From contig SXOX01000036.1 in NCBI GenBank assembly GCA_005776585.1, positions 1,176-65,175 of the forward strand: 64,000 bases of DNA, read 5' to 3'. Position 1 is the first letter of the stretch; every line of letters starts with the position of its first letter. Positions 2 to 24,073 of this stretch are shown piece after piece. The DNA comes from Pseudomonadota bacterium (lineage in GTDB: Bacteria > Myxococcota_A > UBA9042 > GCA-2863065). The notes under the pieces are model-generated. The model was not told where the DNA came from. It saw only the letters and a program-made list of their open reading frames with translations, and did no database searches. Position numbers and translations under genes: made by a program.

Positions 2-1573
2 AAGCGCCAGGACAACCGCGTCGAGGCGGCGCGGCACTACATCGCCGCTGGCGCGTTCCTCGAGGCCGCCGAGGTGCTCGTGACGGCCAACGAGCCGCTG
101 AAAGCCGCCGAGGCCTACCGTCGCGCCAGTCGACCGCTCGATGCGGCGCGGCTCTTGCTCGCCAGTGGAGACCAACGACAGGCCGCACAGCTCTTCGAGG
201 AGGGTGGCGCGCTCGTCGAGGCGGCGCGCATTTGGGAGGTGCTCGGCGATGCCGCCGCCCGGGAACGCTGCCTCGCACGTTCGGGCAACAGCTACGAAGC
301 AGGCCGAGCGGCGTTCGAGCGCGGCGATCTCGACGCAGCACTTCGTTTCTTCGACGCGGTGCCGCCACTTGACGACCAGTACCACGACGCGGGCCTCTTC
401 CGAGGGCAGATTCTGGAGCGTCAAGGACGACAGCAAGACGCAGCAGAGGCTTACCTTGTCTTCCTGAAAACGCGGTCAGTCAACCCTAAGACCGTGATGT
501 TGTTCACCCGGGTGGCGCGCCTGCTAGAGGCCGTCGGCCAGGGCAAGCAGGCGCTTCGCATCCTGGGTCGGATCATCACGGCAGGCCTGGGGAGCTCCGA
601 CATCACCGGCTGGGCCGAGCGACTCGAGCGCACGGGAGACGACTCGATCGCGACGGAGAGCCTCGACGAAGAGGCCGCGGCCCCGCCGAAGCGGGCCCTG
701 CCGGAGACCCCGCCCGCGCAGAAGTCGCCTCCGGCAAAGTCGCCATTTCCGGGGCGCATGGAGATCGACGACGCCGCCCTGTCTGTACTGGAACGGCGCT
801 ACAAGCTCGGAGATCGGATGGGGCAAGGCGGCAACGGCGTTGTCTACTTGGCCACCGACAAGGCGCTCGGGCGCGAGGTGGTCGTCAAGTTCCTCCATCA
901 GGCGCTGCTCCCGACGGACGTCGCGCGCAAGTACTTCACGCGCGAGGCCAAGGTCGCGGCGAGCCTGAGTCACCAGAACATCGTGACGATCTACGACATC
1001 GGAACCGAAGGCGAGACGCTGTATTACTGTATGGAGTGGGTCAAGGGCAAGACGTTGGCCGACCTCGTCATCGAGGCCGGCGGGCGGCTCGGCCACGAGG
1101 CGATCGTGCCGATCATCTCGCAGTTCTGCGACGCGCTCGAGTACGCCCACGACCGACAGGTCATTCACCGCGACATCAAGCCGGGCAACGTCATGGTGAC
1201 GACCGAGGGCAAGGTCAAGCTGCTCGACTTCGGTCTGGCGAAGGCACTGGACGAGAACCCGGACAAGTCGGTGTTTCTCTGTGGGACGCCGTATTACATG
1301 AGCCCGGAGCAGATTACGCGGGGGTTCCTTGACCATCGCACCGACATTTACAGCCTTGGCTGTATGCTTTACGTTATGTACACCGGGGACGTGCCCTTCC
1401 CCGATGGCAACGTTTTTCACCAGCATCAGACGGCGGCCGCGCCGGATCCGGTGACACGGGTGCCCGGCCTTAAGCCCGGCGTGTCGGCGGCCCTCATGAA
1501 GTGCATCGCAAAGGACCGCAACGAGCGCTTCCAGCGGGCGACCGAGGTTGCACGCGCCCTGTCGGCGGCCTGA
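2..1573 (+). CDS. TPR-repeat Ser/Thr protein kinase (Hanks type), 5'-partial
   Basis: Frame is open from the window edge. The N-terminal part has TPR-like helical repeats (YHDAGLFRGQILERQG). The C-terminal kinase has GQGGNGVV, VVVK, HRDIKPGN, DFG, GTPYYMSPE and DIYSLG. No TM segment in the visible part. Confidence 0.93.
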   Translation, partial: KRQDNRVEAARHYIAAGAFLEAAEVLVTANEPLKAAEAYRRASRPLDAARLLLASGDQRQAAQLFEEGGALVEAARIWEVLGDAAARERCLARSGNSYEAGRAAFERGDLDAALRFFDAVPPLDDQYHDAGLFRGQILERQGRQQDAAEAYLVFLKTRSVNPKTVMLFTRVARLLEAVGQGKQALRILGRIITAGLGSSDITGWAERLERTGDDSIATESLDEEAAAPPKRALPETPPAQKSPPAKSPFPGRMEIDDAALSVLERRYKLGDRMGQGGNGVVYLATDKALGREVVVKFLHQALLPTDVARKYFTREAKVAASLSHQNIVTIYDIGTEGETLYYCMEWVKGKTLADLVIEAGGRLGHEAIVPIISQFCDALEYAHDRQVIHRDIKPGNVMVTTEGKVKLLDFGLAKALDENPDKSVFLCGTPYYMSPEQITRGFLDHRTDIYSLGCMLYVMYTGDVPFPDGNVFHQHQTAAAPDPVTRVPGLKPGVSAALMKCIAKDRNERFQRATEVARALSAA

Positions 1574-1670
1574 ACGAGGAAATGACGCACTGCGTCGTCA
1601 CTTGGGGCGTTGAAGTCGCGTTTGGCCTCTGCTAGCCTGCCGCGCCAGCACGGCGAATGGGAGCTTGAAC

Positions 1671-2936
1671 ATGCGAACGAACCTCACCCTGATTGCAGCA
1701 CTTGCGTTGACCGCCACGATGGGCACCGCGGTCACCGCGTGCGCGTCGTCTGACGCGGTCACCGGCGGGACTCCGCCGACGGACACGTCGACCACGGCGG
1801 AGACGATCGTCCCCAAGGAGGAGACCTCGGGCACAACGGGGCAGGATACGGCGCCTGAGCCCAAGGACACCGGCACGGCAGACACCGGCGGAGGCGGAGC
1901 GGACGTTGCGACGGACGCCACGGCAGACGCTGCGCCCGACGTGGTGGATGCAGGCACTCCGGCGGCCTGCGCCAAGGGTAAGGGCTGCTACAACGGCAAG
2001 TGCTGCACGTGCTTCCCGGACAAGAAGGAGTCGCACTGCGAGCAGGGCATCGACAACTCGCTGTCGGGCATCGCGTCGCTGGCCAACAGCCAGCTCCAGG
2101 GCTCCGTCGATGAGGGTCAGGTCAACCTGCTCGCCGAGTTCGTGAGCCCCACGCTCGACGGCAAGGAGTTCACGCTCAACATGTACACGGGAGACCTGGA
2201 TCCCTCCAACGACGGCAAGGACGGCGACACCATCTGCGACGTGACGGCCCCAGGCTGCAAGTGGACGCTGGCGGACATCAACTACGACAAGGACTGCAAA
2301 CCGCTCATCGCGTTCCAGAACGCGAAGATCACCTCGGGCAAGCTCACCGCCGGCGGACCCGATGGCGTGTTCCGGTTGTCGATCCCGATTCAGGGCTTCA
2401 ACCTCGACCTGCTCGTGACGATGGCGCGCATCGAGGCCGACGTCACGCTGAGCAAGGACGGCAAGTCGGTCGAGGCCATCGCGGGCATCCTGGCGGGCGC
2501 AGTGCCCAAGAAGTCGATCGAGGACGCGGTCGCCAAGTTGGGCGACAAGCTGCCGATCTCGCCAGACGCAGTGAAGCAGATCCTGACGAGCGTGGTCAAG
2601 GAGGACATCGACGGCCTCGGCGCCGATGGCAACCCCGGCAAGGATGGTAAGTACGACTCGTCGTCCATCGCCATCAAGTTCGAAGGCGTGCTCGGCACCA
2701 TCACGATGGTCGAGGTCAAGCCCGTCGAGCCGCCCAAGGACGCCGACGCGGGCTCACCGCCGCCGCCGCCGCCGGAGATGTGCAAGACCTACCCGACGAC
2801 CTTCAGCCCCTCGGCCTACCGTCTGACCAAGGTCGGCCTCGGCGAGAATGCCAAGGCGGGCAACGGCCTCGACGTCGACGGCATCTGTGTGGAGCCTGAT
2901 GGCGACCCGGGCGTCAAGTGCCCGGTTGGCGGCTGA
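1671..2936 (+). CDS. Myxobacterial-type Cys-containing lipoprotein
   Basis: ATG at 1671 with GGGAG upstream. Signal peptide with lipobox VTAC, a D/T/P-rich linker, and GIDN and GLDVDG motifs. Confidence 0.75.
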   Translation: MRTNLTLIAALALTATMGTAVTACASSDAVTGGTPPTDTSTTAETIVPKEETSGTTGQDTAPEPKDTGTADTGGGGADVATDATADAAPDVVDAGTPAACAKGKGCYNGKCCTCFPDKKESHCEQGIDNSLSGIASLANSQLQGSVDEGQVNLLAEFVSPTLDGKEFTLNMYTGDLDPSNDGKDGDTICDVTAPGCKWTLADINYDKDCKPLIAFQNAKITSGKLTAGGPDGVFRLSIPIQGFNLDLLVTMARIEADVTLSKDGKSVEAIAGILAGAVPKKSIEDAVAKLGDKLPISPDAVKQILTSVVKEDIDGLGADGNPGKDGKYDSSSIAIKFEGVLGTITMVEVKPVEPPKDADAGSPPPPPPEMCKTYPTTFSPSAYRLTKVGLGENAKAGNGLDVDGICVEPDGDPGVKCPVGG

Positions 2937-2951
2937 GCCTCGGTTCCTCAC

Positions 2952-3422
2952 GTGGCCTTTCGTCGCCGGATGTGCGCGCTCGCGCTGACTGTCGCTACGA
3001 CGGCGTGCGCCTCGACGCTCGACAAGGACTCGGGCGGAGACCACGTTCGCGGCAAGGCGGTCGTGGTGAAGCTGAACGAGACGCACGACGATAGCATCTC
3101 GGCCGACCAGGGGGACCACACCGACTGGAAGAAGCTCACGCTCAAGGCGACGACGATCATCGACGTCAACGTCTATTGGGACGATCCCAGCGTTCGGGCG
3201 AAGGTGAACGTCAAGGACCAGTTCGGCGGTCAGGTCTATGAGCTGACGCACGAGCCAGGCGAGCGTGAGAATCACTGGAAAGGCATGAAGCTGCGTGAGG
3301 GTGACACCTTCCTCGAGGTGGTTGCCGAGCGCGGCGCAAGCGTGTACACGATTGAGCTGACGAGCGGCGATGGCGCCGACGACGGTGGCGGCGGCGATGA
3401 CGGGACCCCGCCACCCGAATGA
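2952..3422 (+). CDS. Lipoprotein with a small beta-sandwich (PPC-like) domain
   Basis: Lipobox TTAC, DHTDW motif, beta-rich body and acidic Gly tail. The start may be the ATG at 2970. Confidence 0.65.
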   Translation: MAFRRRMCALALTVATTACASTLDKDSGGDHVRGKAVVVKLNETHDDSISADQGDHTDWKKLTLKATTIIDVNVYWDDPSVRAKVNVKDQFGGQVYELTHEPGERENHWKGMKLREGDTFLEVVAERGASVYTIELTSGDGADDGGGGDDGTPPPE

Positions 3423-3455
3423 CCAGGAAGTTTCGTCAATCGCCCTCGGCCCCCG

Positions 3456-3534: not shown

Positions 3535-4119
3535 ATGAGCCAGTTCGAGGTCATCAAGGACATCAACGAGACGCTCAAAGAGCTCTTGAAGGAGTCCTTC
3601 AAAGCGAACGGCTTCACGACGGTGAGCGTCAGCACCGATCGACCCAAGAAGGACAACATCAAGAACATGCCGACCGTGTCGTGCTACATGTATCACCTGG
3701 GCTTCCACCAGGGGTACAAGGAGCGCGCGGACACGCTCGTGTCGAGCTACGACAAGCAGGGAAACGTCGTCGAGTACTACCAGGATGCGCCAGCCTACCT
3801 CTTCGCTCACTTCATCGTGAGCGTGTGGGGCAACTCCCCCAACGAGGAGAACTTGCTGCTGGGGCTCGCGGTCAAGACGTTTCTCGAGCACCCCATTCTC
3901 GAATCAGAGACGTTGAAGGGCGACTCGTTCTATCCGGACGACAAGATCAACGTCTATCCCAATCTGCAGGCCGACTTCAACGACACGCTCTCCTTCTGGA
4001 GAAGCTTGAACGAGGAGCTCCGGCCTTCGGTGTACTACTTCGTAAGATTTCGTATCGAATCCGAACGAAAATCTTCCGAAGTCAGGCGTGTCACGGGTAA
4101 GGACTTTGCGATTCGTTAG
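3535..4119 (+). CDS. CIS cap / tail terminator (Pvc16/Afp16, DUF4255-like)
   Basis: DINETLKELL...VSCYMYHL...HFIVSVW...LLLGLAVKTFLEHPIL...FWRSL...RPSVYY pattern, located directly before the sheath gene. Confidence 0.85.
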   Translation: MSQFEVIKDINETLKELLKESFKANGFTTVSVSTDRPKKDNIKNMPTVSCYMYHLGFHQGYKERADTLVSSYDKQGNVVEYYQDAPAYLFAHFIVSVWGNSPNEENLLLGLAVKTFLEHPILESETLKGDSFYPDDKINVYPNLQADFNDTLSFWRSLNEELRPSVYYFVRFRIESERKSSEVRRVTGKDFAIR

Positions 4120-4202: not shown

Positions 4203-5384
<1,182 letters not shown>

Positions 5385-5604: not shown

Positions 5605-6036
5605 ATGCCGAATCGCCGTCCTTTTGACCACATTGGCGCCTTCAACTTCAAGGTTGAGATCGAAGGCGTCACGCAAGGCGCTTTCCGTAACGTCGAGGGC
5701 CTCGACAGCGAGACCGAGATCGTCGAGTTCCAGAACGGTGACGATATCGTCCTCCGCAAGCGGCCGGGCCGCACGAAGTACTCGAACGTCACCCTGAAGC
5801 GCGGCTACATCAACAACACCGAGCTCTGGGACTGGCGCAAGAAGGTCGTCGAGGGCAAGATCGAGCGCAAGGCCGGCTCGATCATCCTCTGCGCCGACGA
5901 CGGCTCCGAGATCATGCGCTACAACTTCTTCGAGGCGTGGCCCGCCAAGTGGAAGGGCTTCACCCTCGATGGCAAGGGCAACGAGGTCACGGTCGAGGAG
6001 CTCGAGCTCGCGGTCGAGAAGATCGAGCGCGGTTGA
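5605..6036 (+). CDS. Tail tube protein 1 (T4 gp19 family)
   Basis: FNFKVEIEG, KRPGRTKYSNVTLKRG, LWDW, AWPAKW and EELELAVE. RBS AAGGAG. Confidence 0.96.
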   Translation: MPNRRPFDHIGAFNFKVEIEGVTQGAFRNVEGLDSETEIVEFQNGDDIVLRKRPGRTKYSNVTLKRGYINNTELWDWRKKVVEGKIERKAGSIILCADDGSEIMRYNFFEAWPAKWKGFTLDGKGNEVTVEELELAVEKIERG

Positions 6037-6227: not shown

Positions 6228-6599
6228 ATGGCATTCCAAACCGAGTTCGAGTTCACCCTGCCACGCGGCTACGTCGACAAAGACGGCAACGTCCACAAGA
6301 AGGGCGTCATGCGGCTGGCCACGGCCAAAGACGAGATCCTGCCGCTTCAGGACTACCGCGTGCAAAACAATCGGGCCTATCTGGTCATCATCCTGTTGTC
6401 GCGCGTGATCTCGAAGCTCGGGGATCTGAAGTCGATCAATCCGGCCGTCGTCGAAGACCTCTACAGCGCCGACCTCGCGTACCTCCAGGACTTCTATCGC
6501 CGGATCAACGAGGAGAACACCTCGAAGGTCAACGTCACGTGCCCGGAGTGCAAGCACAAGTTCCAGTTCGACCTCGGGGGTGAGCTGGGGGAATCGTAA
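6228..6599 (+). CDS. Tail assembly chaperone (lambda gpG-like), CIS-associated
   Basis: TEFEFTLPRGYVD..G..H..G.MRLATA.DEI, DLAYLQDFYRRIN and a C-terminal CPEC; ends LGES. RBS GGAGG. Follows the tube gene. Confidence 0.8.
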   Translation: MAFQTEFEFTLPRGYVDKDGNVHKKGVMRLATAKDEILPLQDYRVQNNRAYLVIILLSRVISKLGDLKSINPAVVEDLYSADLAYLQDFYRRINEENTSKVNVTCPECKHKFQFDLGGELGES

Positions 6600-8928: not shown

Positions 8929-9675
8929 ATGTCTCTCGGATTGTCGGTTGGCGGAGCAGCAGGCGGATTCATCAGTGGCAAGGTCGGCGGCGCCATGGGT
9001 GGCGTGGTCGGGAGCGTCGCAGGTGCTGCGCTCGGAAACCTGGCCAACTTCGCAATGGGCGCGCTGTTCGGCACTCGCCGCGACCCCGATCTCCAGTTTT
9101 GTTACACAGTGGAGATTGACGGCATCACGCTCGGCATGTTCTCGGAGGCCGGCGGGATCAAATGGTCCATGGAGACGGAGAACGTCAAGTCGGGCGGCAA
9201 CAACGACCACGAGTTCTACCTCCTCGGTCGTGCCAAGTTCGATCCGTTGGTCCTCAAGCGAGGCTTCGTCGCCGCAGAGGGCATGCTCTTCGACATGATG
9301 AAGGCCAACTACGACCTCACGTCGAGCGCAGCGCCGCGCCACAAGGTCGACGTCGTCGTCCTCAAGCGGCAGAACAACACCGGCCTCTCGGGCCTCGTCG
9401 GGCTCGGCGAGATCGGGCGCTTCTCGTTCCCGAACTGCTTCGTGCAGGAGTGGAGTGGCCCGCAGTTCAACGCAAAGACGAGCGACATCACGATCGAGTC
9501 GATCACCTTCCGCTATGACTACGTGGAGTTCCTTCCGGGCGGGCCACTGGCCACGGCGCTCGGTGCGATCGGCGGGGCGATTGGCGGCAAGCTCGGCGGC
9601 GCGGTCGGAGGCAAGATCGGCGGGGCGATCGGCAGCGCGGCAGGCGCGGCCGGTGGCAAGGCGCTCGGAATCTAG
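8929..9675 (+). CDS. Tail tube protein 2 (Afp5/Pvc5-like) with N- and C-terminal glycine-zipper extensions
   Basis: gp19 core (YTVEIDG, GGNN, LVLKRG, WSGPQFNA, IESITFRY) flanked by GxxxG-repeat segments. Confidence 0.85.
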   Translation: MSLGLSVGGAAGGFISGKVGGAMGGVVGSVAGAALGNLANFAMGALFGTRRDPDLQFCYTVEIDGITLGMFSEAGGIKWSMETENVKSGGNNDHEFYLLGRAKFDPLVLKRGFVAAEGMLFDMMKANYDLTSSAAPRHKVDVVVLKRQNNTGLSGLVGLGEIGRFSFPNCFVQEWSGPQFNAKTSDITIESITFRYDYVEFLPGGPLATALGAIGGAIGGKLGGAVGGKIGGAIGSAAGAAGGKALGI

Positions 9676-12700: not shown

Positions 12701-15140
12701 CAAGGGTCGCGTCACGCGCATCGCGCCTGCGACCGCCGCGGCCGCGCGCGCATCGACGATCGCGCCGGTGCAGACACGGACGGTGGGCTCGGAACGTTCC
12801 ACGCGGGACGAGCGACGCCTCGACGACGTCGCCGGGACCGGCGGCCGGCCGCGGGCGGCGCGCTCACCGGCCGACACGACGCGTTCGGCGGTAGACTCGA
12901 GCCAGGTCATTCCGGGTCTCGTGCGCTCGGTCATGACGCCGACCTCGGGATTCCACGCGGTCTCCGAGGGCACCTCGGCACTGACGCAGCTGTCGGTTGC
13001 AACGGCCTCGCATGCGGCGAGCCTGCGCGCGGCACATGGCTTGGCCGTCATCGGCTCAGAGCTCGGCCACCTGCCAAGCGCAGCGCGCGGGGTCGTGACC
13101 CGCGCCCTGTCCGCTCTCGGGGCGCTCGGGCCGCGCGCCGAAGCGTCGGCCTTTGGATCGGCCGCGACCGGCTCGTCCGCCGCGACCGCCATCATCGAGC
13201 GCCTCACGTCACTCGTCGGGCTCGGGCCCTCCGCGTCCCGTCGCGTCGTCGCGAGTCGACTTGCAGACGCAGGTGTCAGCCTCGATGAGCTCGTCCACGC
13301 GCTGGGCAGCGAGCCCCTGGATGCGACCAGCACACGCGAGCTGACCACTCGCCGGGCAATGAAGCCCGACGCGGCACCGGGGCGGTCCGCGGACCTCTCG
13401 GCGCCCGAGCGCGCCGCAGCGCTCCGCCGAGGTGACGCGCTTGCGGCGCAAGGCACCGCGGCTCTCGGAAGCCCGGCTGCGGTGACCATGGCGGCGACGC
13501 ACGCGCTCCTCGGCGCCGACGCGCGACCGGCATCGACGCTGCGAACCAGCCCGTATTTTGGGGAGTTCGCCCCTGCGTCCATTCGCATGGGTGACGCGCT
13601 AGGCTCACTGCGGTCGCTCCTGGCCTCTATCGGCCTGACGGATGCGCCAGACACTAGCGCTGCAGCACCCGCAGAGCGGCTCTCTCGCCTGGCCTTCGAC
13701 GCGCCGGAGACCACGTGGCTTGACACCTCGGACCCCGCTGGGGCCTCGACCGTCCCCGCGACTGACGCCGTCAAGAGCGCCTCGGCTCGCGGCCGCGCCG
13801 CGACGACCGTGGCAGCGCCGCACACGCGTCCGGGGAGCCCGGCGAGCTGGGACGCATCGGACGCCATCGTTCGGCGTTTGGGAGCCGGAACGAGCGATCC
13901 GACTGAGCGCGCCCTGGAGCGCATGACGTCGATCCGACCGACCTCGTCCGAGCATGGCCCCGAGGCCCTGCCGGGGGCGTCCCTCACGCGGGATTGGGTG
14001 GCCACGACGGAGAGCGCCGCTCCCCCGTTTGCGGAGCGCCTCCTGGCTGCCTCCGCACCGTGGGAGCAGCACGCAGGCTCGAGCGCTGCGGCGCGAGAGC
14101 TGTCCCTGGGTCAAGGCTCCGATCTGGAGCTGCTCGCGAGCGACGCGCAAGCGACGTCGGCCGATGGACTCACGCTCGGGGCTCGGCGCACGTCGCGGGC
14201 GCCGTCGGCGGGGTCGTCCTCCGCTCAGGCCGGCGCAGCCGCAACGCGCAAGGCGGGCTCGAGCGCCGCAGCCACGCTGCTTGGGAAGGGTGACCGCAGC
14301 GTCGCTTCGGGCGTGGCCGAGGGCCGTTTTGCCGAGATCGTGCAGCTTGCGGCCGCTCAGCTCGGACGAGCGTCGCAGGTCGACGGACCGCGCGGCTTCC
14401 AGGCCATGGGCTCCACCGCCATTCATGCGCTGCTGCGTGGCATGCCGACGAACCGGGCCGTGACCTCGTTCCTGGCGGGCGGGATCGACTTCGCGCACAC
14501 GGTCATCGACCGTGCCAACGGTGCCTTCGCGGGACTCGATCTCGGCGTGCTGCGGTCCCTCGACCGGCAGGCCGAGGCGAACGCGGAGAACGCCGCGAGC
14601 CCCTCGCTCGTACCCGGGATGCAGGAGTGGCCGGAGGACATGCGCACCTTCCTCGGCCAGGACGACGCGCCGCAGGGCTCGACTCGGGCCATCAACGCCA
14701 AGGTGGAGCGCCTCGAGCGTCGCATGGACGCCGCGCAGCAGGCCTACACGCGGCTTCGGGATGCCCGTCCGGCAGCGGCGGGGCCGCCCCATTCACTGGA
14801 CTCGGTCGACTGGAGCTTCGTGCGCACGGGCGCCTATCGCGACGTCCCGCAGGGCGCCGACCTTGGTCGCTTGGCCTCGGCCATGGTCAAGTCACGCGAC
14901 GTCCCGATGGCCGACATGGCCTACGTCGCACCCGCGGCCAAGGTGGTCGCGCAGCAAGCCCAGATGAAGCCGGCCAACGAGCCGTCGGCCTCGTCGAGCT
15001 CCTCGTCGAGCTCCGCCCCCCAGGGCAGTGCCGAAGGAGAGCGTGAAGAGAAGGTCGACTACGACTCGCTCGCGATGAAGCTATTGGGCAGGATCGCGCG
15101 GAAGAGCGCGTTCGACAAGCACCGCACCGGCGGCCACTAG
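9720..15140 (+). CDS. 1806-aa Ala/Ser/Gly/Arg-rich low-complexity CIS protein (tape-measure-like, scaffold or cargo)
   Basis: Long uninterrupted ORF in the operon between tube 2 and the LysM gene, with GAGG RBS. The C-terminal helix DYDSLAMKLLGRIARK...HRTG resembles the ends of long proteins at this position in other CIS loci. Confidence 0.7.
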   Translation: MATESRKVGELARLGQLAFAGRGAELAGLGREDANVMSAWAALTASVVDSKFDCCVSSAYDSTTFAGLNQSVTERYLTDDPSFAFGTPLTIGRRFGGAWSPEVGYGLIDFIEPEWLTLEDDALDNEDFRTEALARRSMFGRSAPSSARSARRNRADVVAPRRAPRSMTVDSGGVADGSDWTTAAPATPRRAEAAYVQPYPKAMGNTGARFVTSAQRRLATVDAGATSVAIDGDRISMRQLGRAVESLRATSGAAASPIEAETLRARAFSRVDTETTAWSGHVPTVEADLGRATPAGRHASGTTESTRVQGNRSARRPTSRSIARTSPRSLAGWESRPSAAPLVELDGIAVSADRLPSLAAGLGVASQAFAIGRSPRSAGHTARLARGAVTPDVAGVGEVPSTTAAAQRLGRGPTGMTAPDGASVPALGGVFSPSRLESALQVVSYSPRTSAPRLGYDAVLYDASEMAWLAMETESPATIDGAQATTLQRPGRRLTAAEAATHAASTAVRARGLTLSGLVTAATPSGAARSAAGAGLPTVGGSERAQRATSDSGSWSQLEKAAATWMMADAGLDGVRPGRAAVRDLQATAATEGHGRAMLDPQRTEAAPPGAMTVDRVTEMAPASSVGYATGHALLQALYSAGTPAGRAAMASSQERRGALSVQDLVPVSNAGALSARSEFARQARSAAGDARLSPVAGESGIAQRRAGEALSLRAQLGMSLGQTHLSATTTRAELFAARQLDAGWTSPTGATTDGISLPGEVTIRPSSLASYVDDPVVYVGLEGDGASSIEPTLKHGTPRTQARARAMSPQVHAALDAVTMPLSSAASLEASLRAASGSGRRDGQSQVAGIATAQADGAGTQPWEALGRHRSFDRRTMSELSSHVSEAPGRESLLERRVGALSHEKSAPGVVSWVSTAPGFSPATASLSTGDLLGTVGSTQGAPSLGSAVSGPADARQLFYRFSGDAETTFLAGDAELGSAPLGAVAGSHVVVSKGRVTRIAPATAAAARASTIAPVQTRTVGSERSTRDERRLDDVAGTGGRPRAARSPADTTRSAVDSSQVIPGLVRSVMTPTSGFHAVSEGTSALTQLSVATASHAASLRAAHGLAVIGSELGHLPSAARGVVTRALSALGALGPRAEASAFGSAATGSSAATAIIERLTSLVGLGPSASRRVVASRLADAGVSLDELVHALGSEPLDATSTRELTTRRAMKPDAAPGRSADLSAPERAAALRRGDALAAQGTAALGSPAAVTMAATHALLGADARPASTLRTSPYFGEFAPASIRMGDALGSLRSLLASIGLTDAPDTSAAAPAERLSRLAFDAPETTWLDTSDPAGASTVPATDAVKSASARGRAATTVAAPHTRPGSPASWDASDAIVRRLGAGTSDPTERALERMTSIRPTSSEHGPEALPGASLTRDWVATTESAAPPFAERLLAASAPWEQHAGSSAAARELSLGQGSDLELLASDAQATSADGLTLGARRTSRAPSAGSSSAQAGAAATRKAGSSAAATLLGKGDRSVASGVAEGRFAEIVQLAAAQLGRASQVDGPRGFQAMGSTAIHALLRGMPTNRAVTSFLAGGIDFAHTVIDRANGAFAGLDLGVLRSLDRQAEANAENAASPSLVPGMQEWPEDMRTFLGQDDAPQGSTRAINAKVERLERRMDAAQQAYTRLRDARPAAAGPPHSLDSVDWSFVRTGAYRDVPQGADLGRLASAMVKSRDVPMADMAYVAPAAKVVAQQAQMKPANEPSASSSSSSSSAPQGSAEGEREEKVDYDSLAMKLLGRIARKSAFDKHRTGGH

Positions 15141-15189: not shown

Positions 15190-15951
15190 ATGAGCTTGAT
15201 GAGTGGTCTCGCGGATATGGTGAGCGGCGCGCTCGCAGCGGGCGGCCTCTTGATGAAAGGTGGCGTCACCGCGGCGCGTCTGGAGGTCGCTCCGAACGAG
15301 GCGCGCGCCAAGACGTGGCTCGCGCAGTGTCCCTTCGTGACGTTCCAGTTCAACCCGGAGTCGATCAAGATCGACCGCTACGCGCCCACCACGACGGTCC
15401 CGGTCGCGGGCCAGTCGCAGGTCGGCAACACTCAGGTGTCGGGCGCCAGCGAGAACCGGCAGGCCACGATTCAGCTGACGAACATCGTGTTCGACTGCTT
15501 CGAGACCCGGCCGCTCACGAGCGTGTATACGGCGTTCGTCCAGAAGCTGGAGCTCTACGCGGGCATCGACCCGGAGAAGCACGCGCCTGCGTGGCTGTAC
15601 TTCAACTGGGGCAAGTTCAGCGAGGGCTTCACGGGCGCGCATCGGCTCTACTGCAAGCTCGAGAAGCTCGAGGCGACGTACACCATGTTTCACTCGGACG
15701 GGACGCCACTCCGCGCCAAGTGCAACATGACGCTCAAGACTGGAAACCCGGAGGAGCAGCCCGAGAACAAGTCGCCCGACCACGCCAAGCTGGTCACGGT
15801 GCTGCGGGGTCAGTCGATTACGGACATCGCCTACCACGAGTACGACGACCCGCGGGAGTGGCGGCGCATCGCCGACGCGAATCAGATCGACGACCCGACG
15901 GCGCTGATGCCGGGGACTCGCCTCATCGTTCCTCCGATCCTCAAGCGCTAG
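15190..15951 (+). CDS. CIS tube initiator with C-terminal LysM (Afp7/Pvc7-like)
   Basis: FQFNPESI, FNWG and YTMFHSDGTPLRAKC. LysM: VLRGQSITDIAYHEYDDPREWRRIADANQIDDP. Confidence 0.9.
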   Translation: MSLMSGLADMVSGALAAGGLLMKGGVTAARLEVAPNEARAKTWLAQCPFVTFQFNPESIKIDRYAPTTTVPVAGQSQVGNTQVSGASENRQATIQLTNIVFDCFETRPLTSVYTAFVQKLELYAGIDPEKHAPAWLYFNWGKFSEGFTGAHRLYCKLEKLEATYTMFHSDGTPLRAKCNMTLKTGNPEEQPENKSPDHAKLVTVLRGQSITDIAYHEYDDPREWRRIADANQIDDPTALMPGTRLIVPPILKR

Positions 15952-15963: not shown

Positions 15964-17079
15964 ATGCCAATGAAGAACCGCGAAACGGTCAACCTCCTCG
16001 TCAAGCTCGACGGAAGCACAAGCATCCGTGGGCCGGGCGGGCAGACCTATGAGCTCACCAACAACATGGGACTGGTGTCGCTGTCGATCGACCTGCGACT
16101 CGACGCGCCGGACGCGTTCGAGGCAGAGTTCCTAGCTACGCTCGAAGGCCAGCACACGGTCTACGAATACGTGAAGGAAGGGATGCAGGTCGAGGCCGGT
16201 CTGGGCTTCGAGACGCCCGTCTCGCCGATCTTCAAGGGCGAGATCATCTACATTGATACCGACTACGATGTAGAGAGCGGCCACCGCGTCATGATTCGAG
16301 GGTTCGACAAGAACCATCGACTGACACGCGGCCACGACGCCAAGACCTGGGGCGACGGCTTCAAGCAGGAGCAGAAGATGTCGGGCGGCCTCAGCTCGCT
16401 CTTCAGTGGGCAGGGCCTCCAGTTCAAGGCGCCCTCCAAGGAGCCGCAGCACGCCTATGTCCCGAAGACGATGGGCACCGACTACGACTTCATGAAGTGG
16501 ACCGGACAGACGCCGTTCCGCAAGCCAGACGTGACGTCGAATGCCGTGGCCCAGATCTGCTTCGAGAACCTCGAGGGAAGCAATCCGGTGCGCGTCCTCA
16601 ACGTGCGCTATGGCGTCTCGACGTTCCCGGCCTATCAGAAGGTGCGTGTGCACGGCTGGGACGTGAAGAAGAAGGCGGCGTTCATGAAGGAGATCACCAA
16701 GTGCTCTCCTGAGATCGACTGCGCCCAAGCCAACTCGAGCGCGGGCTGGACGGCGGGCTGGACCAACGCGAAGGACGCGGTCGGCAAGGAGTCGGTTTAC
16801 GAGGCGGTCGTGAATTGGACCGAGCATCCCGAAGAGGCCGAGAAGGTCGGCCAGGCCATCTTCGACTCCATGAGCCTCAAGTACCTCACCGGTGAGGTCA
16901 CCTGCGAGGGCGATCCCGCGATCATCCCCGGCAAGCCCGTCGAGCTGAAGGGCTTCAGCGGTCGCATGAACGGCAAGGTCATCGTGACCCAGGCCGTGCA
17001 TCGCTACTCCGCTCAGGGTCGTGTTCCTTATCTCACCACCTTCCAGTTCGCCTCCAACGCGGGCAAGAAGGCCTCCTAG
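15964..17079 (+). CDS. Baseplate hub (phage late-control D / gp27-like), without a gp5 spike domain
   Basis: IFKGEI, IRGFDKNHRLTRG, TDYDF, VRVHGWD, GDPAIIPG and GKVIVTQAVHRY. It stops at 371 aa, where a VgrG would continue into the OB-fold. Confidence 0.82.
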   Translation: MPMKNRETVNLLVKLDGSTSIRGPGGQTYELTNNMGLVSLSIDLRLDAPDAFEAEFLATLEGQHTVYEYVKEGMQVEAGLGFETPVSPIFKGEIIYIDTDYDVESGHRVMIRGFDKNHRLTRGHDAKTWGDGFKQEQKMSGGLSSLFSGQGLQFKAPSKEPQHAYVPKTMGTDYDFMKWTGQTPFRKPDVTSNAVAQICFENLEGSNPVRVLNVRYGVSTFPAYQKVRVHGWDVKKKAAFMKEITKCSPEIDCAQANSSAGWTAGWTNAKDAVGKESVYEAVVNWTEHPEEAEKVGQAIFDSMSLKYLTGEVTCEGDPAIIPGKPVELKGFSGRMNGKVIVTQAVHRYSAQGRVPYLTTFQFASNAGKKAS

Positions 17080-17410: not shown

Positions 17411-17827
17411 ATGAGCACGAGCTTTCCCAAGAAAAACTTCCTCGGGACCGGCTGGTCGTTTCCGGTCCGGATCGGCAGCTCCGGAGGCATCGCGCTCTCG
17501 AGCTACGAAGAGAACATCGAGGAGAACGTCCGCGTCATCCTGGGGACGGCGGTCGGCGAGCGGGTCATGGAGCCCGACTTCGGCTCACGCCTCCACGACT
17601 ACGTCTTTCACCCGAACAACCCCACGACGTCCTCGAGCGTGTGCTTTCACGCGCAGAGCTCGTTGTCCAAGCTCGAGCCGCGCATTCGTGAGATCGCCGT
17701 ACGTGCGTACCCCGATCCCAATGCGGACAACGTATTGCTTCTTCACGTAACCTACAAAATCATTCGCGACAACGAGCTTCGCAACATGGTTTACCCCTTC
17801 TATCTCCGGAGGGAGCAGGACCTATGA
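17411..17827 (+). CDS. Baseplate wedge / sheath initiator (gp25/GPW, Afp9-like)
   Basis: FLGTGWSFP, ILGTAVGERVMEPDFGSRL, EPRI and NMVYPFYL. Confidence 0.95.
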   Translation: MSTSFPKKNFLGTGWSFPVRIGSSGGIALSSYEENIEENVRVILGTAVGERVMEPDFGSRLHDYVFHPNNPTTSSSVCFHAQSSLSKLEPRIREIAVRAYPDPNADNVLLLHVTYKIIRDNELRNMVYPFYLRREQDL

Positions 17828-20800: not shown

Positions 20801-20838
20801 TCGACATCACCGAAAAGGCGCACGAGCGAATCCTCTAA
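17824..20838 (+). CDS. Baseplate J-like assembly protein (Afp11/Pvc11-like)
   Basis: PSPNLDDRRY, WTNFNKADPGITL, three WEYWNG-type modules, FGDGVRG, RAVTREDFE and GWPFGR. Confidence 0.95.
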   Translation: MIPSPNLDDRRYDDIVDEAIRLIPQYCPDWTNFNKADPGITLVHLFAWMTELVIYRLNKVPEKNYLSFLDMMGIQRQPPQPARTVLTFTISEKADSTLVPAGTQIATHPTGDRKETLFETETDLTVVNNKLSRVVSQYHDQYADITSYLETNEAFEVFEGVRSVDRYLYIGDDRLENFSEAAILTLTIEVANPGERPFPKMMEWEYWNGERWRELNEAGIDTDPDSIAFAGPGNHEKCVVGEVETFWIRGRLAEVPKSYDETEVHKLTGRIEVLGDGIDPELMYFSPAPDAYLILDSDRNFKLFGDEPHIDTFLYIASDEIFRQPKTRVKVEVMLTDPSIVEKPAPSADLVLEWQYYNGKRWRTLGKMGPGYEPPKGKSKADENPYDFKDETVAFSQNGALSFNRPEDMQAVEVNGHEQLWIRCQVIKGGYGAKGTYELVEDRWVYQNEFPLKPPSLKALTLKFAEEKQGFGQVWTYNDFMYVDESKMAATQKPFRAFQPVPEENPTLYLGFDNPFPHEPIQIFFNVVDPTTVVRGRRRAKVFVGSEEQDKYVEQTIVWEYWNGKEWAPLLPKDGTDNFQAAGFLEFVGPKVHRKARRYGDNLHWIRARLAFGGYDEPPICDGIRLNTVYASNYQTIPEFVLGASQGTPNQFFGFTRGQLLPGQHIAVIEQEKPSDDDLERLIAEEGPDAIRELPEHGGWLVRWHEVESFYESLPRSRHYMKEVSNGEIRFGDGVRGMVPPKGERNIVAVRCRVGGGFEGNVPAGAIEVLQSTIPFIETVTNPYAAMGGADLETIDEIKLRGPHVLKSTGRAVTREDFEWLAVQSSNSVARVNCIPAHKSEGQVTVVVVPKMAENHPDFVRSKALPSTELLRRVRQYLGERKLLTTVLHVVKPRYREFSAKIEIMRRTSGSSDRIKREIDERLRRFLHPLRGGKQRRGWPFGRNVFKVDLFHVVEEVDGVDFVSAVRIIDEDTKSDVDQVRIDEDELPFLVNIDITEKAHERIL

Positions 20839-21744
20839 ATGCAAGAGCGCGAGCGCAAAAAGCTCAGAATGCCCGAGGTCGTCGGGCTCCGCGAAGAGGA
20901 CGCGCAGGCCCTGCTCCGCAACATGGGCTTTGCGCCCGCGCGGATCCGGTTCGTGGATGCGTACGAGGACGTCGGGACCATCGTGCAGCAAGCGCCGCTC
21001 AAGGGGCAGCTCGCGGACTCACACGGTCCGCTCATGCTCACCGTGTGTCGGCGCAGCTACATGCGGCTCCTGCCGCAGATCTATCAAGTCGACGCGTCCA
21101 CGGGGAACCCGTTTCTCCGGGAGTACCTCTGGATCTTTCAGCACCTCGTCGAGTCGGTCACCAAGAAGATCGACGGGATGTACAAGTACTTCCACCCGCT
21201 GGAGTGCCCGCCGGATTTTCTGCCGTGGCTGGCGTCCTGGGTGGCGCTTACCATCGACACAGACTGGCCCGAGATCAAGAAGCGCACCTTGATTCGGCGC
21301 GCTGCGCACCTCTACCGGAACCGCGGCACGCGGCGCGCGATGATCGAGATCCTCGACATCTTCGTCGGCAAGCGCCCCAAGATCATCGAGAACAAGTGGC
21401 CGTACACGGGCTTCCGCATGGGGGTCACTTCCGCCATCGGCGAGGACACCATCGTGCTCCCGCCGATCAACCTGGATCACTGCTTCATCGTCCAACTCCC
21501 CATCCCGCCGGAAGACGTGACGGAGGAGATGGTGGTCAAGATTCACAACATCATCAACCACGAGAAGCCGAGCCACACGACCTACTTCCTCCAGTTCAAG
21601 AGCGAAGTGGCCAAGGCGAAGCCGCAGGTGTTCATGCAGATCGGCGCCGTGTCGACCATCGGCTTGACCGAGCTTCGCTACGACGCGGAGCCGGTCATCG
21701 ACGAGCCCACCGGCGACAAGACCGAGTCGAAGAAGAAGGAGTAA
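20839..21744 (+). CDS. Baseplate wedge protein (P2 gpI-like) with an N-terminal PASTA domain
   Basis: PASTA: MPEVVGLREEDAQALLRNMGF...GTIVQQAPLKG...LTV. Then LLPQIY, FLPWLASWV, LYRNRGT and HEKPSHT. Confidence 0.85.
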   Translation: MQERERKKLRMPEVVGLREEDAQALLRNMGFAPARIRFVDAYEDVGTIVQQAPLKGQLADSHGPLMLTVCRRSYMRLLPQIYQVDASTGNPFLREYLWIFQHLVESVTKKIDGMYKYFHPLECPPDFLPWLASWVALTIDTDWPEIKKRTLIRRAAHLYRNRGTRRAMIEILDIFVGKRPKIIENKWPYTGFRMGVTSAIGEDTIVLPPINLDHCFIVQLPIPPEDVTEEMVVKIHNIINHEKPSHTTYFLQFKSEVAKAKPQVFMQIGAVSTIGLTELRYDAEPVIDEPTGDKTESKKKE

Positions 21745-21747
21745 TCG

Positions 21748-23286
21748 ATGGCCGAGCACGCCCTATCCCCCTTCAAGCGCATCAACTTCTTCCGCGGCTT
21801 CATGACCACGGAGAACGATTGGAACGACGCTGAAAAGTATCACATCGAGAAGCGCAAGCTGCACAACCGGCTGATGCATGCGCCGGGCGTGGTGCCGCAC
21901 CACTACGGCGGCTTCAAGGTGTCCGCGCGTGGCAAGGGCGAGATGGCCGTCGAGGTCGCGCCAGGCTACTCCATCGATGGGCAGGGCAACGACATCGTGC
22001 TCGCCGAGACGGAGATCAAGCTCGTCAACCTGGCCGACTTCAAGCTCCCGAACACGGTCTTCATCGTGTGCAAGTTCATCGAGGAGTTCACGGACTTCAT
22101 CGCCTACAAGGAGAACCTGGAGTTCAAGGGCCACCGGCGTGTGGCCGAGCGTTGCCGCATCGACATCGAGGTGACCGAGCCCGACATCCTCAAGGAGATC
22201 GAGATCGCCCGCATCTATCTCGACAACACGGTGCGCAAAATCGTCGAGCCCAAGGACCCGCTCAATCCGCGTCCGGGCGAGATCGACCGCCGCTTCGTGC
22301 CGATCGCGGGCTACGTGGGGTCCAACCTCGCGCCCAAGACCGTGCGCGACGTCATGGATCTGCTCGGCGAGAGCAAGAAGGCCTACGGCTACCTCTTCCA
22401 CGACCTCAAGATCCTCACGGCGTCGGACGTACTGCACGCGCTCATGTCGCTCGAGATGCTCCTGCGCTCGAACAACCTGGACCGCGACGCGCTGCTCGAC
22501 CTCTGGAACATGATCTTCGATCTCCAGGGCGAGATGGTGCAGGACGTCGACAAGAACCACCCGCAGCAGAGCGGTCGCAAGGAGTTCGGGGCGTTCAAGA
22601 AGAACATCGAGATCATCCGTGGCATGGCCAAAGAGGGCGCCAAGGATCTCGACTTCCTCGTCAACACGATTGGCTACCAGCGCAAGTCGTGCGAGTCGCT
22701 GCTGCCGCTGTATCAGCACAAGATCGCGGACGCCAAGTCCAGCGGCGGCGAGCTGGCCTCGACCGACAAGGTGCTGGAGGCCATCAAGACGCGCAGCTCA
22801 GAGTTTGGTCCGGTGCTCGAGCTCGAGGGCGTCACCTTCAAGCGGGTGGACACCATCGACGTCATCGACCCCAAGAGCGAAGAGGACCACAAGCTGGTCA
22901 TCGAGCAGGCCCGCGACAAGTACCGCACCCGCCAGAAGCTCAAGTACCCCGATGGCGTGACCATCGAGGACGTCGGCATGGCGTACGAGGGCGGCTACTG
23001 CGAGTTCGAGATCACGGGCGTGCAGGTCAAGAAGGACGTCGTGCTCGTCACGCGCATGGACTACGTCCACGGCGACTTCGAGCTCGAGGTCTACGTGAAT
23101 GGCAAGAAGGTCGGCAACTGCGTCTGCCCCGGCCAGGACCGGCGCTTCCGGTGGCGCAACTGGCCCTTTGTCATTCCGGCGGAGTACGTCAACGAGCCGC
23201 ACCTCAAGATCAAGCAGGTCCCCATCACGGCGGGCCGCGACGTGAACATGTTCAAGATCTGGGCGTACCAGCAGACCTCGATGTAG
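21748..23286 (+). CDS. Fibre-like / baseplate-attached protein with a C-terminal putative carbohydrate-binding jelly-roll
   Basis: The N-terminus KRINFFRG...YHIEKRKLHNR...VAPGYSIDGQGNDIVL is typical of CIS fibre-anchor domains. Helical middle region; beta-rich C-terminus (LEVYVNGKKVG...WRNWPFVIP). Confidence 0.65.
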   Translation: MAEHALSPFKRINFFRGFMTTENDWNDAEKYHIEKRKLHNRLMHAPGVVPHHYGGFKVSARGKGEMAVEVAPGYSIDGQGNDIVLAETEIKLVNLADFKLPNTVFIVCKFIEEFTDFIAYKENLEFKGHRRVAERCRIDIEVTEPDILKEIEIARIYLDNTVRKIVEPKDPLNPRPGEIDRRFVPIAGYVGSNLAPKTVRDVMDLLGESKKAYGYLFHDLKILTASDVLHALMSLEMLLRSNNLDRDALLDLWNMIFDLQGEMVQDVDKNHPQQSGRKEFGAFKKNIEIIRGMAKEGAKDLDFLVNTIGYQRKSCESLLPLYQHKIADAKSSGGELASTDKVLEAIKTRSSEFGPVLELEGVTFKRVDTIDVIDPKSEEDHKLVIEQARDKYRTRQKLKYPDGVTIEDVGMAYEGGYCEFEITGVQVKKDVVLVTRMDYVHGDFELEVYVNGKKVGNCVCPGQDRRFRWRNWPFVIPAEYVNEPHLKIKQVPITAGRDVNMFKIWAYQQTSM

Positions 23287-23404
23287 CCCGCCGAGCGGGG
23301 TCGTCCGTCCCCACATTTAGATCCGCTGCGGACTTGAAACCTCACCGCGAGGCGGCCACACTGGCGATTGCGGCTCCGTCGGGACGGCACCGCCAGGGTG
23401 ATTC

Positions 23405-24073
23405 ATGGTCATGGACTTCTTCAAGGGCCTGGTTCGCGGCCGCGTCGAGGGCGTTCGCGCCGGCGCGCAGGCCAAGGTGTACGGCGCCAAGGCGCGTGCG
23501 CAGAGCAAGGCGGCGAACTCGTTCAACAAGGCCATCGACAAGCCGCTCGAGAAGGCCAAGGAGAAGGCCAAGGAAGCCGCCAAGAAGGGCAAGGACAAGG
23601 ACGACAAGTCCAAGGACAAAGACAAGGACAAGGGGGAGGAGAAGGTGGGCTGGTTCTCATCGAAGAAGAAAGAGGAGAGCAAGGGCTCGGCCCGCCAGGC
23701 CCAGAAGCCCGACTTCGAGCCCGGTGACAAGACGCAGGCCATCGACATCAGCGGACTGACGGACGAGCGTTCGACGGACGTGGTGGGGTGGGTCGTCGCC
23801 TTGAACGGGCCCTTGAAGGGGAAGGACTTTCGCCTCGTCACGGGGCGCAACTTCATCGGCACGGCCGCCGACTGCGAGGTCGTGCTTTACGACCCCTACC
23901 TGTCGACGAAGCACTCGGTCATCCGTCACGAGAACGGCGAGTTTCAGCTCATCGATCTCGACTCCACCAACGGCAGCTTCGTCAACGATCGGCGCATCAC
24001 CAAGACGGAGCTCATCGACAACGACAAGATCCGCATCGGCCGCACCGAGATGAAGTTCAAGTCGCTATTCTAG
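23405..24073 (+). CDS. FHA domain protein with a Lys-rich N-terminal region
   Basis: GWVVALNG..KG.DFRL, then FIG, LSTKH, DLDSTNGSFVN and DKIRIG. Confidence 0.9.
   Translation: MVMDFFKGLVRGRVEGVRAGAQAKVYGAKARAQSKAANSFNKAIDKPLEKAKEKAKEAAKKGKDKDDKSKDKDKDKGEEKVGWFSSKKKEESKGSARQAQKPDFEPGDKTQAIDISGLTDERSTDVVGWVVALNGPLKGKDFRLVTGRNFIGTAADCEVVLYDPYLSTKHSVIRHENGEFQLIDLDSTNGSFVNDRRITKTELIDNDKIRIGRTEMKFKSLF

Follow-up and report, generated by a model that had tools for sequence, protein, structure and literature searches.

A contractile injection system lineage of the Myxococcota with a divided spike, unlinked ATPase and effector genes and a conserved pair of FHA genes

The stretch of DNA analysed here (hereafter the window; 64,000 nucleotides of contig SXOX01000036.1) carries, in a single co-oriented row of plus-strand genes at positions 2952-24073, the structural core of a contractile injection system (CIS) lineage specific to the Myxococcota. 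We found that parts missing from this row are encoded elsewhere in the same genome: the needle half of the spike is an unlinked gene, and AAA+ ATPases of the Afp15/Cis15 type and eCIS_core effectors lie on other contigs. In this sense the locus is a core, and the modules for loading and cargo are its satellites. We are close to certain of this scattered-gene architecture, and a pair of genes encoding forkhead-associated (FHA) domain proteins is very probably a dedicated component of the system. The system itself is probably an antibacterial weapon which we infer to be docked at the cell envelope.

Distribution and phylogeny

The host contig (C5) is 66 kb long and belongs to a 334-contig genome that is 86.7% complete; the G+C content of the window is about 67%, and its genes were called from third-position GC together with family scans (Pfam, NCBIfam, PHROG). 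Three DNA runs of one freshwater study contain the window stretch, and no RNA run is listed as containing it. Co-occurrence was scored in a sample of 41 related genomes, 32 of which, from 26 of the 32 genera, have a baseplate J gene (J-positive) and nine of which do not (J-negative).

The needle, the ATPases, the eCIS_core domain and the FHA genes were found in 30 to 32 of the 32 J-positive genomes, as against none to three of the nine J-negative genomes. Neither the CIS nor the needle, the two FHA genes or eCIS_core is present in family f10 (no CIS in any of five genomes) or in g19 and g27, two genera of family f8, and the ATPases are missing there too, with one exception; this joint absence in f10 and in g19 and g27 indicates that at least two independent losses removed the parts together. 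An initial annotation of positions 2-24073 had named, as an outcome that would count against a distinct system, that the missing genes simply lie elsewhere. To some extent they do, yet their scatter is conserved across the clade; it is a clade trait and not an assembly artefact.

Judged by record titles, the closest sheath loci are those of Myxococcales, Polyangia, Kofleriaceae and Nannocystineae metagenome-assembled genomes (MAGs), at 63-87% identity; the sheaths of two Planctomycetota MAGs are 67-68% identical, and those of Chloroflexota, actinomycetes, cyanobacteria and archaea 43-63%. The sheath phylogeny that had been proposed as a check was carried out as a quick maximum-likelihood tree of 82 sheaths, as a careful search did not finish. 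It places the window's sheath in a 27-row clade of Myxococcota and the two Planctomycetota MAGs (Shimodaira-Hasegawa-like approximate likelihood ratio support, SH-aLRT, 93), separate from the Actinomycetota/Chloroflexota clade that includes Streptomyces, from the archaeal clade and from a mixed cyanobacterial clade. Two MAG records titled 'uncultured Enterobacteriaceae' (L037 and L039), with sheaths 86-87% identical to that of the window, are nested in the Myxococcota clade and are probably mislabelled.

A spike divided between the locus and an unlinked gene

The one-piece VgrG-like spike (Afp8/Cis8) is absent from the locus, which holds the hub half only. The hub protein aligns with residues 78-342 of the 643-aa Streptomyces coelicolor spike chain 9gtr_q (E = 1.6e-10). 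Its AlphaFold2 model (predicted local distance difference test score, pLDDT, 74; predicted template modelling score, pTM, 0.72; 21-sequence alignment) matches, with a Foldseek probability of 1.0, the CIS spikes 7aef_q, 9gtr_q, 7b5h_AJ and PVC8 and the VgrG proteins of type VI secretion systems (T6SSs), as well as the stand-alone hubs of about 320-370 aa of Mu (gp44), P1 and pyocin R2; the template modelling scores stay at a low 0.3-0.4, owing to a disordered 67-residue loop and to the greater length of the targets. On the strength of this alignment and these fold matches we therefore regard the 371-aa protein as a gp27-like hub without OB-fold and needle. Homologues of 371-413 aa are present in all 30 loci extracted, and 81 of the 107 genomes of the class have the hub gene.

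A whole-genome scan for the gp5 OB-fold (PF04717) returned one gene only, which encodes 293 aa on the minus strand of contig C62 (10616-11494; E = 1.5e-23) and lies between moeA and unrelated genes. The protein aligns with residues 379-469 of 9gtr_q, 374-482 of the AlgoCIS chain 7aef_q and 380-482 of the Anabaena chain 7b5h_AJ, and this segment of the spike chain directly succeeds the one aligned to the hub. Its monomer model is poor (pLDDT 56, pTM 0.37) and was not used for fold search. Orthologues occur in 32 of the 41 genomes, comprising 31 of the 32 J-positive genomes (the exception is G030) and one of the nine J-negative genomes (G009), and in all the matches listed they lie away from the CIS locus.

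Outside the locus, the genome at its 86.7% completeness contains no other sheath, Baseplate_J, Phage_GPD, TssC, TssM or TssK gene. Given that no other contractile machine was found that could claim the C62 needle, we conclude that Afp8/Cis8 has been split and its needle half relocated. The split is established at the level of sequence: the hub is in the locus, and the OB-fold/needle half is the unlinked gene on contig C62. The two products presumably form one spike.

No PAAR match (PF05488) exceeds the curated 27-bit cut-off anywhere in this 86.7%-complete genome; a match on contig C314 (24.8 bits) was sub-threshold and was not counted as a tip protein. The initial annotation, which had reported neither spike nor PAAR, thus holds for PAAR throughout the genome and for the gp5 needle within the locus; it does not hold for the spike as a whole. 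In genome G011, two adjacent needle paralogues on contig C773 (L167) lie about 3 kb from an eCIS_core gene, an arrangement like that of VgrG-effector islands.

ATPases and effectors outside the locus

With full-length ATPases from six loci outside the Myxococcota clade as queries, we recovered 11 Afp15/Cis15-like matches in the host genome (29-44% identity), on contigs C82, C118, C35, C253, C263, C194, C133, C306, C277, C242 and C105. Ten of them span most of the query, and that on C105 covers only about 140 residues. Judged by these alignments, the genome encodes at least ten full-length or near-full-length Afp15/Cis15-like AAA+ paralogues, all outside the locus. The family (E <= 1e-50) is present in all 32 J-positive and in three of the nine J-negative genomes, in 1-13 copies.

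Linkage was assessed by tblastn of three AAA domains of the host genome against all fetched loci. Of the 54 loci that fall outside the Myxococcota clade, 37 have, no more than 10 kb from the sheath, a gene with 50-65% identity to the domain on C133. No Cis15-type AAA domain was found near the sheath in any of 26 loci inside the clade, nor in any of 20 stretches from 10 relatives. AAA genes of 418-444 and 839-859 aa, which lie 7-30 kb from the locus in three relatives, were set aside as clpX-lon by size alone.

The Pfam domain eCIS_core (DUF4157) has nine matches in the host genome, none on the window's contig. Five of these, in four proteins (the C35 protein has two), adjoin a Cis15-like ATPase. 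The four comprise a 914-aa protein on C194 (M23 peptidase, PG_binding_1 and lipase/alpha-beta hydrolase domains), a 1542-aa protein on C35 (GH46 and peptidoglycan-binding), a 654-aa protein on C277 (Tse3-like muramidase N-domain) and a 367-aa protein on C253 (DUF6973). The eCIS_core domain was found in all 32 J-positive and in two of the nine J-negative genomes. In the same-family genome G006, one contig carries the LysM initiator, the hub, the ATPase and eCIS_core, in that order. Among the window open reading frames (ORFs) scanned there is neither an AAA+ ATPase nor an eCIS_core effector domain, so the earlier statement that ATPase and toxin are missing is right for the locus and wrong for the genome.

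Proteins with DUF4157 are CIS cargo; in a haloarchaeal genome their genes are scattered and the proteins are secreted in a sheath-dependent manner, according to passages of PMC11566945. [quoted passage not shown]

Three further neighbourhoods of the ATPase paralogues may be recorded. On contig C118 (19270-23768; L155) the ATPase gene is directly followed by a gene for a 746-aa Ser/Thr kinase, on C133 a CpXC protein precedes the ATPase, and on C253 the ATPase and eCIS_core genes have a fusion of low-molecular-weight phosphatase and ATP-grasp between them.

A conserved pair of FHA genes

FHA1 and FHA2 score 62.8 and 69.3 bits, respectively, against a Pfam FHA cut-off of 20.7 bits. FHA1 has a conserved N-terminal segment of amphipathic appearance and a Lys-rich linker; in FHA2 the signal peptide and the transmembrane (TM) helix are conserved in the alignment, and Pfam scores the protein also as a YscD cytoplasmic domain. 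We found whole-length FHA1 orthologues in 30 of the 32 J-positive genomes and in none of the nine J-negative genomes, the two J-positive genomes without a match being 62% and 77% complete. FHA2 orthologues are likewise present in 30 of the 32 J-positive genomes, and in one J-negative genome (G022, which has the hub gene).

In 19 of 30 genomes the baseplate genes are followed directly downstream by FHA1, and FHA2 adjoins FHA1 in 25 of the 29 relatives that have both; the second FHA match 1.5 kb downstream in relatives is the orthologue of the FHA2 gene of the window. In two records, one from Kofleriaceae and one from another myxobacterium, FHA genes are likewise found on the strand of the sheath gene, 17-20 kb downstream. 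The assignment of an FHA gene to the system in the initial annotation is therefore borne out, and the limit that it had set at 24073 has to be moved, as a second, membrane-spanning FHA gene belongs to the system.

In the host genome the two genes are separated by about 17 kb (24074-41231), which looks like an insertion or rearrangement. This interval holds a B12-binding radical SAM gene, a PKD-domain protein, a 1297-aa Vgb_lyase-like propeller protein, a rhomboid protease, and a GSP_synth/ATP-grasp gene with a DUF350 gene.

The signature of phosphothreonine-binding FHA domains consists of Gly-Arg, Ser-x-x-His and Asn-Gly. Among eight FHA1 sequences, the Arg is present in three and replaced by Lys in five, SxxH is present in seven and NG in all eight; among eight FHA2 sequences, the Arg is present in two and replaced by Ser in six, and SxxH is present in all eight.

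The neighbouring kinase and lipoproteins

A Ser/Thr kinase and two lipoprotein genes at the 5' end of the row had also been counted as parts of the system. The N-terminus of the kinase lies upstream on contig C5 and includes one TM helix; its TPR matches are weak and sub-threshold. Full-length homologues (46-65% identity) are present in five of seven same-family relatives, in all five on contigs other than the CIS contigs, and homologues with 37-42% identity are present in all five genomes of the CIS-lacking family f10. In the loci of 10 relatives we found generic kinase-domain matches only, in two loci, one of them on the opposite strand. The adjacent kinase is probably a chance neighbour, and its inclusion has to be withdrawn.

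This bears on the mechanism that the initial annotation had put forward, namely a hybrid machine devoid of spike, ATPase and toxin in which the adjacent kinase acts as trigger through the FHA protein. Taken alone, the locus fits that description: it has no needle, PAAR, ATPase or effector, and the kinase is adjacent and co-oriented here. The needle, ATPases and effectors are, however, encoded elsewhere and co-occur with the system, and the kinase has the distribution just described, so that we find this proposal scarcely credible.

The two lipoproteins differ. The first (1665-2936) belongs to no Pfam or NCBIfam family, tblastn against the loci of 10 relatives gave no match for it, and none of the genes upstream of the small lipoprotein in two relatives matches either this protein or the window kinase. 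The second, of 156 aa, has a lipobox in the window copy and in all five orthologues read. It has matches in 27 of the 41 genomes, and in 18 relatives the cap gene follows it directly; paralogues exist, and no match was obtained in the six CIS-positive genomes of family f6. Only this second lipoprotein, which is often syntenic, keeps a place beside the system.

The structural gene row

The initial annotation had described a near-complete, co-oriented structural set of the Afp/PVC type, and the family scans confirm the genes that it listed (Table 1). It had missed three: the hub, the cap and a zinc ribbon. Of the set that defines an extracellular contractile injection system (eCIS) in Afp/PVC numbering, we found the sheath, gp19 tube, gp25, J, P2_I, LysM initiator and DUF4255 cap; an Afp15/Cis15 ATPase within the cluster was not found among the window ORFs scanned, nor was any Afp13-like fibre family, the 512-aa ORF included. 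Holin and endolysin families are likewise missing from the window ORFs in general family scans, as had been noted before, no dedicated search for lysis genes having been made.

Table 1. Genes of the CIS row, its upstream neighbours and the second FHA gene in the window.
Feature	Position	Strand	Evidence
TM-TPR-Hanks Ser/Thr kinase, 5' end upstream of window	2-1573	+	Pkinase E 8.5e-53
423-aa predicted lipoprotein	1665-2936	+	lipobox signal peptide read in translation; no family
156-aa lipoprotein, directly upstream of cap	2952-3422	+	lipobox signal peptide
Cap, tube/sheath terminator, Pvc16/Afp16-like (DUF4255)	3535-4119	+	PF14065 Pvc16_N E 1.8e-21, above cut-off
Short sheath, 393 aa	4203-5384	+	Phage_sheath_1 (PF04984) and Phage_sheath_1C (PF17482)
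Tube, gp19/Afp1-like	5605-6036	+	Phage_T4_gp19 (PF06841) E 8e-41
Tail assembly chaperone-like, 123 aa, C-terminal CxxC	6228-6599	+	phrog_508 E 1.1e-5
Long sheath paralogue, longest ORF 664 aa	6906-8900	+	Phage_sheath_1 and Phage_sheath_1C
Second tube-family protein, Afp5/Cis1b-like	8929-9675	+	Phage_T4_gp19 E 3.4e-24; phrog_4542 tail tube
1806-aa low-complexity Ala/Ser/Gly/Arg-rich protein, probable tape measure	9720-15140	+	position; no family
Tube initiator with LysM, Afp7/Cis7-like	15190-15951	+	CIS_tube (PF19266) E 7.8e-17; LysM E 0.0021
Spike hub, 371 aa, gp27-like half of split Afp8/Cis8	15964-17079	+	VgrG_rel E 2.9e-19
Four-Cys zinc ribbon, 58 aa	17228-17404	+	CPxC...CxxC; between hub and gp25
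gp25-like baseplate wedge	17411-17827	+	GPW_gp25 (PF04965) E 1.5e-20
Baseplate J/Cis11-like, 1004 aa	17824-20838	+	Baseplate_J (PF04865) E 2.4e-25
P2_I/Cis12-like baseplate protein, PASTA-like N-terminus	20839-21744	+	Tail_P2_I (PF09684) E 5.5e-14; CIS12_fam E 1.7e-27
512-aa baseplate-periphery protein, Cis13-like N-terminus	21748-23286	+	CIS13_fam E 1.7e-8, residues 6-120, far under family cut-off
FHA1, soluble FHA protein	23405-24073	+	FHA E 4.2e-17
FHA2, signal peptide/VWA-like/TM helix/cytoplasmic FHA	41232-42749	+	FHA E 4e-19; VWA E 1.1e-4

Conservation is very uneven within the machine: across families of the class, the short sheath, tube and chaperone are 77-91% identical, J 45-68% and the hub 26-44%. 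The short sheath is 83-91% identical across the class, and among solved structures its best matches are the Streptomyces CIS sheaths (8bky/9gtp, E = 8.7e-134; 8bl4/9gts, E = 4.6e-131), with the PVC, Afp, AlgoCIS and Anabaena sheaths far behind in the same comparison (E = 1e-48 to 1e-62). The best solved match of J is Streptomyces Cis11 (9gtp_1K, E = 8.3e-91). The cap is 62-86% identical in relatives, the long sheath 46-65% and the chaperone-like protein 79-86%; Atlas clusters of the last are auto-named phage tail assembly protein (score 0.98). The long sheath may start later than its longest ORF, because homology begins near residue 57-77.

At each end of the second tube protein there is a hydrophobic tail that is rich in Gly and resembles a glycine zipper; the tails are similar in four of seven relatives and absent in two (forms of 155-158 aa), the remaining relative having a different N-terminal extension. 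The 1806-aa protein has no family match in Pfam, NCBIfam or PHROG. It is a probable tape measure, to judge by its position between tube and initiator, its size, and its conserved termini with a middle part and length that vary among relatives (3.2-6.5 kb between the flanking genes).

The CPxC...CxxC motif of the 58-aa zinc ribbon is conserved in the copies of seven relatives. The protein was considered as a possible substitute for PAAR; general family and PHROG searches gave no significant family. At the N-terminus of the P2_I protein, PASTA scores 23.1 bits, just below the 23.2-bit cut-off; PASTA is normally an extracytoplasmic peptidoglycan-binding module. The 512-aa protein is 46-72% identical in the loci of all 10 relatives; apart from unnamed Atlas clusters it has no match in Pfam, the PDB or PHROG. 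It was tried as a fibre or beta-helix lyase, for which neither a family nor a PDB match was found. Its middle part appears helical, judged by eye only.

On the 3' side the row is followed by the B12-binding radical SAM gene and then by unrelated genes. Three genes on the minus strand of the window have no evident link to the CIS, namely those for an EGF-domain protein (44893-47601), a 783-aa YidC with a long N-terminal extension (50628-52979) and a VWA and PilY1-like protein (58310-61519).

Mode of action

We favour, with fair confidence, the reading that this is a CIS with scattered genes and satellite-loaded effectors whose FHA pair anchors the baseplate to the inner membrane or licenses it there, and which is fired at bacteria. 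In such a system the 1806-aa protein would set the tail length, which comes to roughly 270 nm under the tape-measure rule of about 1.5 Å per residue. The ATPase paralogues would feed the neighbouring eCIS_core effectors into the tube, and the hub would make up a single spike together with the unlinked needle. The two FHA proteins, in many cases joined by the small lipoprotein, would tie the baseplate to the inner membrane or license firing there, FHA1 possibly reading a phosphothreonine mark and FHA2 acting more as a YscD-like scaffold. Firing would then send cell-wall-degrading effectors into neighbouring bacteria, in predation or in competition. The payload of peptidoglycan hydrolases and a lipase points to bacterial targets.

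A cell-retained, envelope-docked mode, as the initial annotation had proposed, stays plausible in view of the conserved FHA gene, its membrane-spanning FHA partner, the often-syntenic second lipoprotein and the lack of canonical T6SS parts. Docking of the particle to the membrane, judged by itself, is a tentative element, nearly but not quite as credible as its opposite. A bolder version of the reading would be that a diderm phylum independently made an eCIS-type machine cell-anchored and contact-dependent, with the YscD-like VWA/FHA protein, the soluble FHA adaptor and the lipoprotein replacing the T6SS membrane complex, a hub with an unlinked needle, and up to a dozen ATPases each with its own effector ('one motor per toxin'), licensed by Thr phosphorylation; in this extended form we think it rather unlikely.

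Several observations weigh against the reading that we favour. Control by phosphorylation is weakened because the Arg of the FHA signature, which we take to be the phosphate-binding position, is Ser in six of eight FHA2 and Lys in five of eight FHA1 sequences, and neither the relatives' loci nor the survey of kinase homologues yielded a partner kinase or phosphatase that is conserved with the system. The ATPase paralogues and eCIS_core proteins are also present in a few J-negative genomes (G009, G022 and G037). As related genomes are not independent, co-occurrence comes down to some two or three loss events. The role of the 1806-aa protein as tape measure is a presumptive one, assigned by position and size alone. 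The 512-aa Cis13-like protein, which has no recognisable fold, could be a receptor-binding fibre, and this would favour a released particle. Finally, in the part of a preprint available to us, a Haliangiales CIS is reported to have a PAAR-like tip and, in the corresponding region, an AAA+ gene (bioRxiv 10.1101/2024.12.19.629468); in the Kofleriaceae loci, neither was seen within 10 kb of the sheath.

A rival view holds that the system is an extracellular CIS of the classic kind, whose particles are put together in the cytoplasm, are set free when a subpopulation lyses and attach to prey by the 512-aa protein, with an FHA pair that regulates production or assembly only. The cap, the tape-measure-like protein, the tail chaperone and the LysM initiator are indeed parts of eCIS or phage type that T6SSs lack, and eCIS_core cargo with a loading ATPase is the AlgoCIS pattern, as far as the AlgoCIS source was seen. 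Both reports on uncultured Myxococcota, in the passages at hand, read their CIS as a predation weapon, and one of them as an eCIS (PMC11937823; see also bioRxiv 10.1101/2024.12.19.629468). The scanned ORFs, however, include neither an Afp13-like fibre family nor a lysis cassette, and a bitopic inner-membrane FHA protein and a lipoprotein that co-occur with the system are hard to reconcile with a free particle, whereas effectors that target peptidoglycan fit released and docked modes equally. We consider this view unlikely on the whole, although it deserves to be taken seriously.

Myxobacteria undergo developmental cell death, and a system of the Streptomyces type would fire inside its producer and bring about regulated cell death in stress or development, with the membrane FHA protein in the role of CisA. 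Among solved structures, the Streptomyces CIS supplies the nearest sheath and Cis11, and that system is without fibres and needs a membrane protein encoded downstream of its baseplate genes, according to passages of PMC12237407. Yet the Myxococcota sheaths form a clade apart from that of Actinomycetota and Chloroflexota, the M23, muramidase-like, GH46-like, peptidoglycan-binding and lipase domains of the satellite effectors act on the envelope of another cell, and in free-living marine MAGs that were read as predators the tube gene is highly expressed (passages of PMC11937823). A suicidal function is thus quite improbable, and an antibacterial weapon fired from the producing cell remains our preferred reading.

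The lineage is widespread in uncultured, reportedly predatory Myxococcota. Its ATPase-effector satellite modules suggest that antibacterial cell-wall hydrolases and lipases form a large pool as yet unannotated, and such loci will be missed or misclassified by surveys of CISs that are based on hidden Markov models and demand both a linked ATPase and a spike in one piece.

Comparison with known systems

CIS clusters of uncultured Myxococcota are already in print (passages of PMC11937823 and of bioRxiv 10.1101/2024.12.19.629468). In UBA796 MAGs from a seamount, a syntenic CIS set with a highly expressed tube gene was read as a predation weapon and eCIS (PMC11937823), and the CIS of a Haliangiales MAG was given a structural model with a 'truncated' VgrG-like spike and read as a predation weapon (bioRxiv 10.1101/2024.12.19.629468). 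Both probably belong to the same broad lineage as the system of the window. The text passages of the two papers do not mention FHA, DUF4157 or an unlinked needle; their figures and supplements may list more genes, FHA genes among them. Literature searches on extracellular contractile injection with FHA domain found nothing; those on contractile injection with forkhead-associated returned T6SS or unrelated papers, as far as their listings show; and those on CIS, FHA, kinase and myxobacteria, and on DUF4157 in Myxococcota, found nothing on this system. In the literature searched we thus found no mention of the FHA pair, of the unlinked needle or of the satellite ATPase-effector modules.

The cytoplasmic CIS of Streptomyces coelicolor and S. 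venezuelae (type IId; PDB 8bky, 8bl4, 9gtp, 9gtr) provides the closest solved sheath, Cis11 and spike chains. It resembles the present system in that no tail fibre is recognisable and that the baseplate genes are followed by one for a membrane protein specific to the lineage (passages of PMC12237407). The window's sheath, however, lies outside the Actinomycetota/Chloroflexota clade of the Streptomyces system and is without the insertion domain (393 as against 534 aa), and a second sheath and a second tube are present here. Cis8 is one 643-aa chain there and split here, and in actinomycete loci related to the Streptomyces CIS the ATPase lies beside the sheath. The gene after the baseplate genes is Cis13-like here and followed by the FHA genes; the main text of the CisA paper does not mention FHA (PMC12237407).

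The membrane-bound CIS ('archaeal T6SS') of the haloarchaeon Halogeometricum borinquense is alike in having a gene set of eCIS type that acts attached to the cytoplasmic membrane, scattered DUF4157 toxins that are secreted in a sheath-dependent manner, and a lineage-specific putative anchor gene that correlates with the mode of action, all according to passages of PMC11566945. Archaeal sheaths are 53-61% identical to that of the window over the best segment. The differences are that the host is an archaeon with an S-layer and not a diderm bacterium, that the ATPase is in the cluster and that the anchor is a different protein; that paper does not mention FHA or a kinase.

In the phages P2 and Mu and in R-pyocins (gpD/gp44, gpV/gp45), as here, a stand-alone hub of about 320-390 aa is combined with a spike that is a separate chain; fold matches of the hub model include Mu gp44, the pyocin R2 hub and 3cdd. 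Hub and spike genes are neighbours in phage tail modules, whereas the needle gene here is unlinked and lies beside housekeeping genes such as moeA.

T6SSs, with their Thr-phosphorylation pathway (PpkA-PppA-Fha1, TagH) and TssJ anchor, are similar to the present system in that the contractile machine is accompanied by a lipoprotein and by two FHA proteins, one of them membrane-associated. Canonical T6SS components are missing from the host genome, however: PF05943 (TssC), PF05936 (TssK), PF06761 (TssM) and Phage_GPD gave no match, TssJ and TssL not having been searched for, and a PpkA-type kinase conserved together with the FHA gene was not found. The machine is of eCIS type, with cap, tape measure and chaperone. 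The likeness to the T6SS pathway is one of working principle only.

To our knowledge there are only three known routes by which eCIS-type machines turn into cell-bound weapons: cyanobacteria anchor them at the thylakoid, Streptomyces uses CisA and haloarchaea have an anchor of their own. The lineage described here is a candidate for a fourth, with parts that can be tested: the FHA pair, the split spike and the ATPase-effector satellites.

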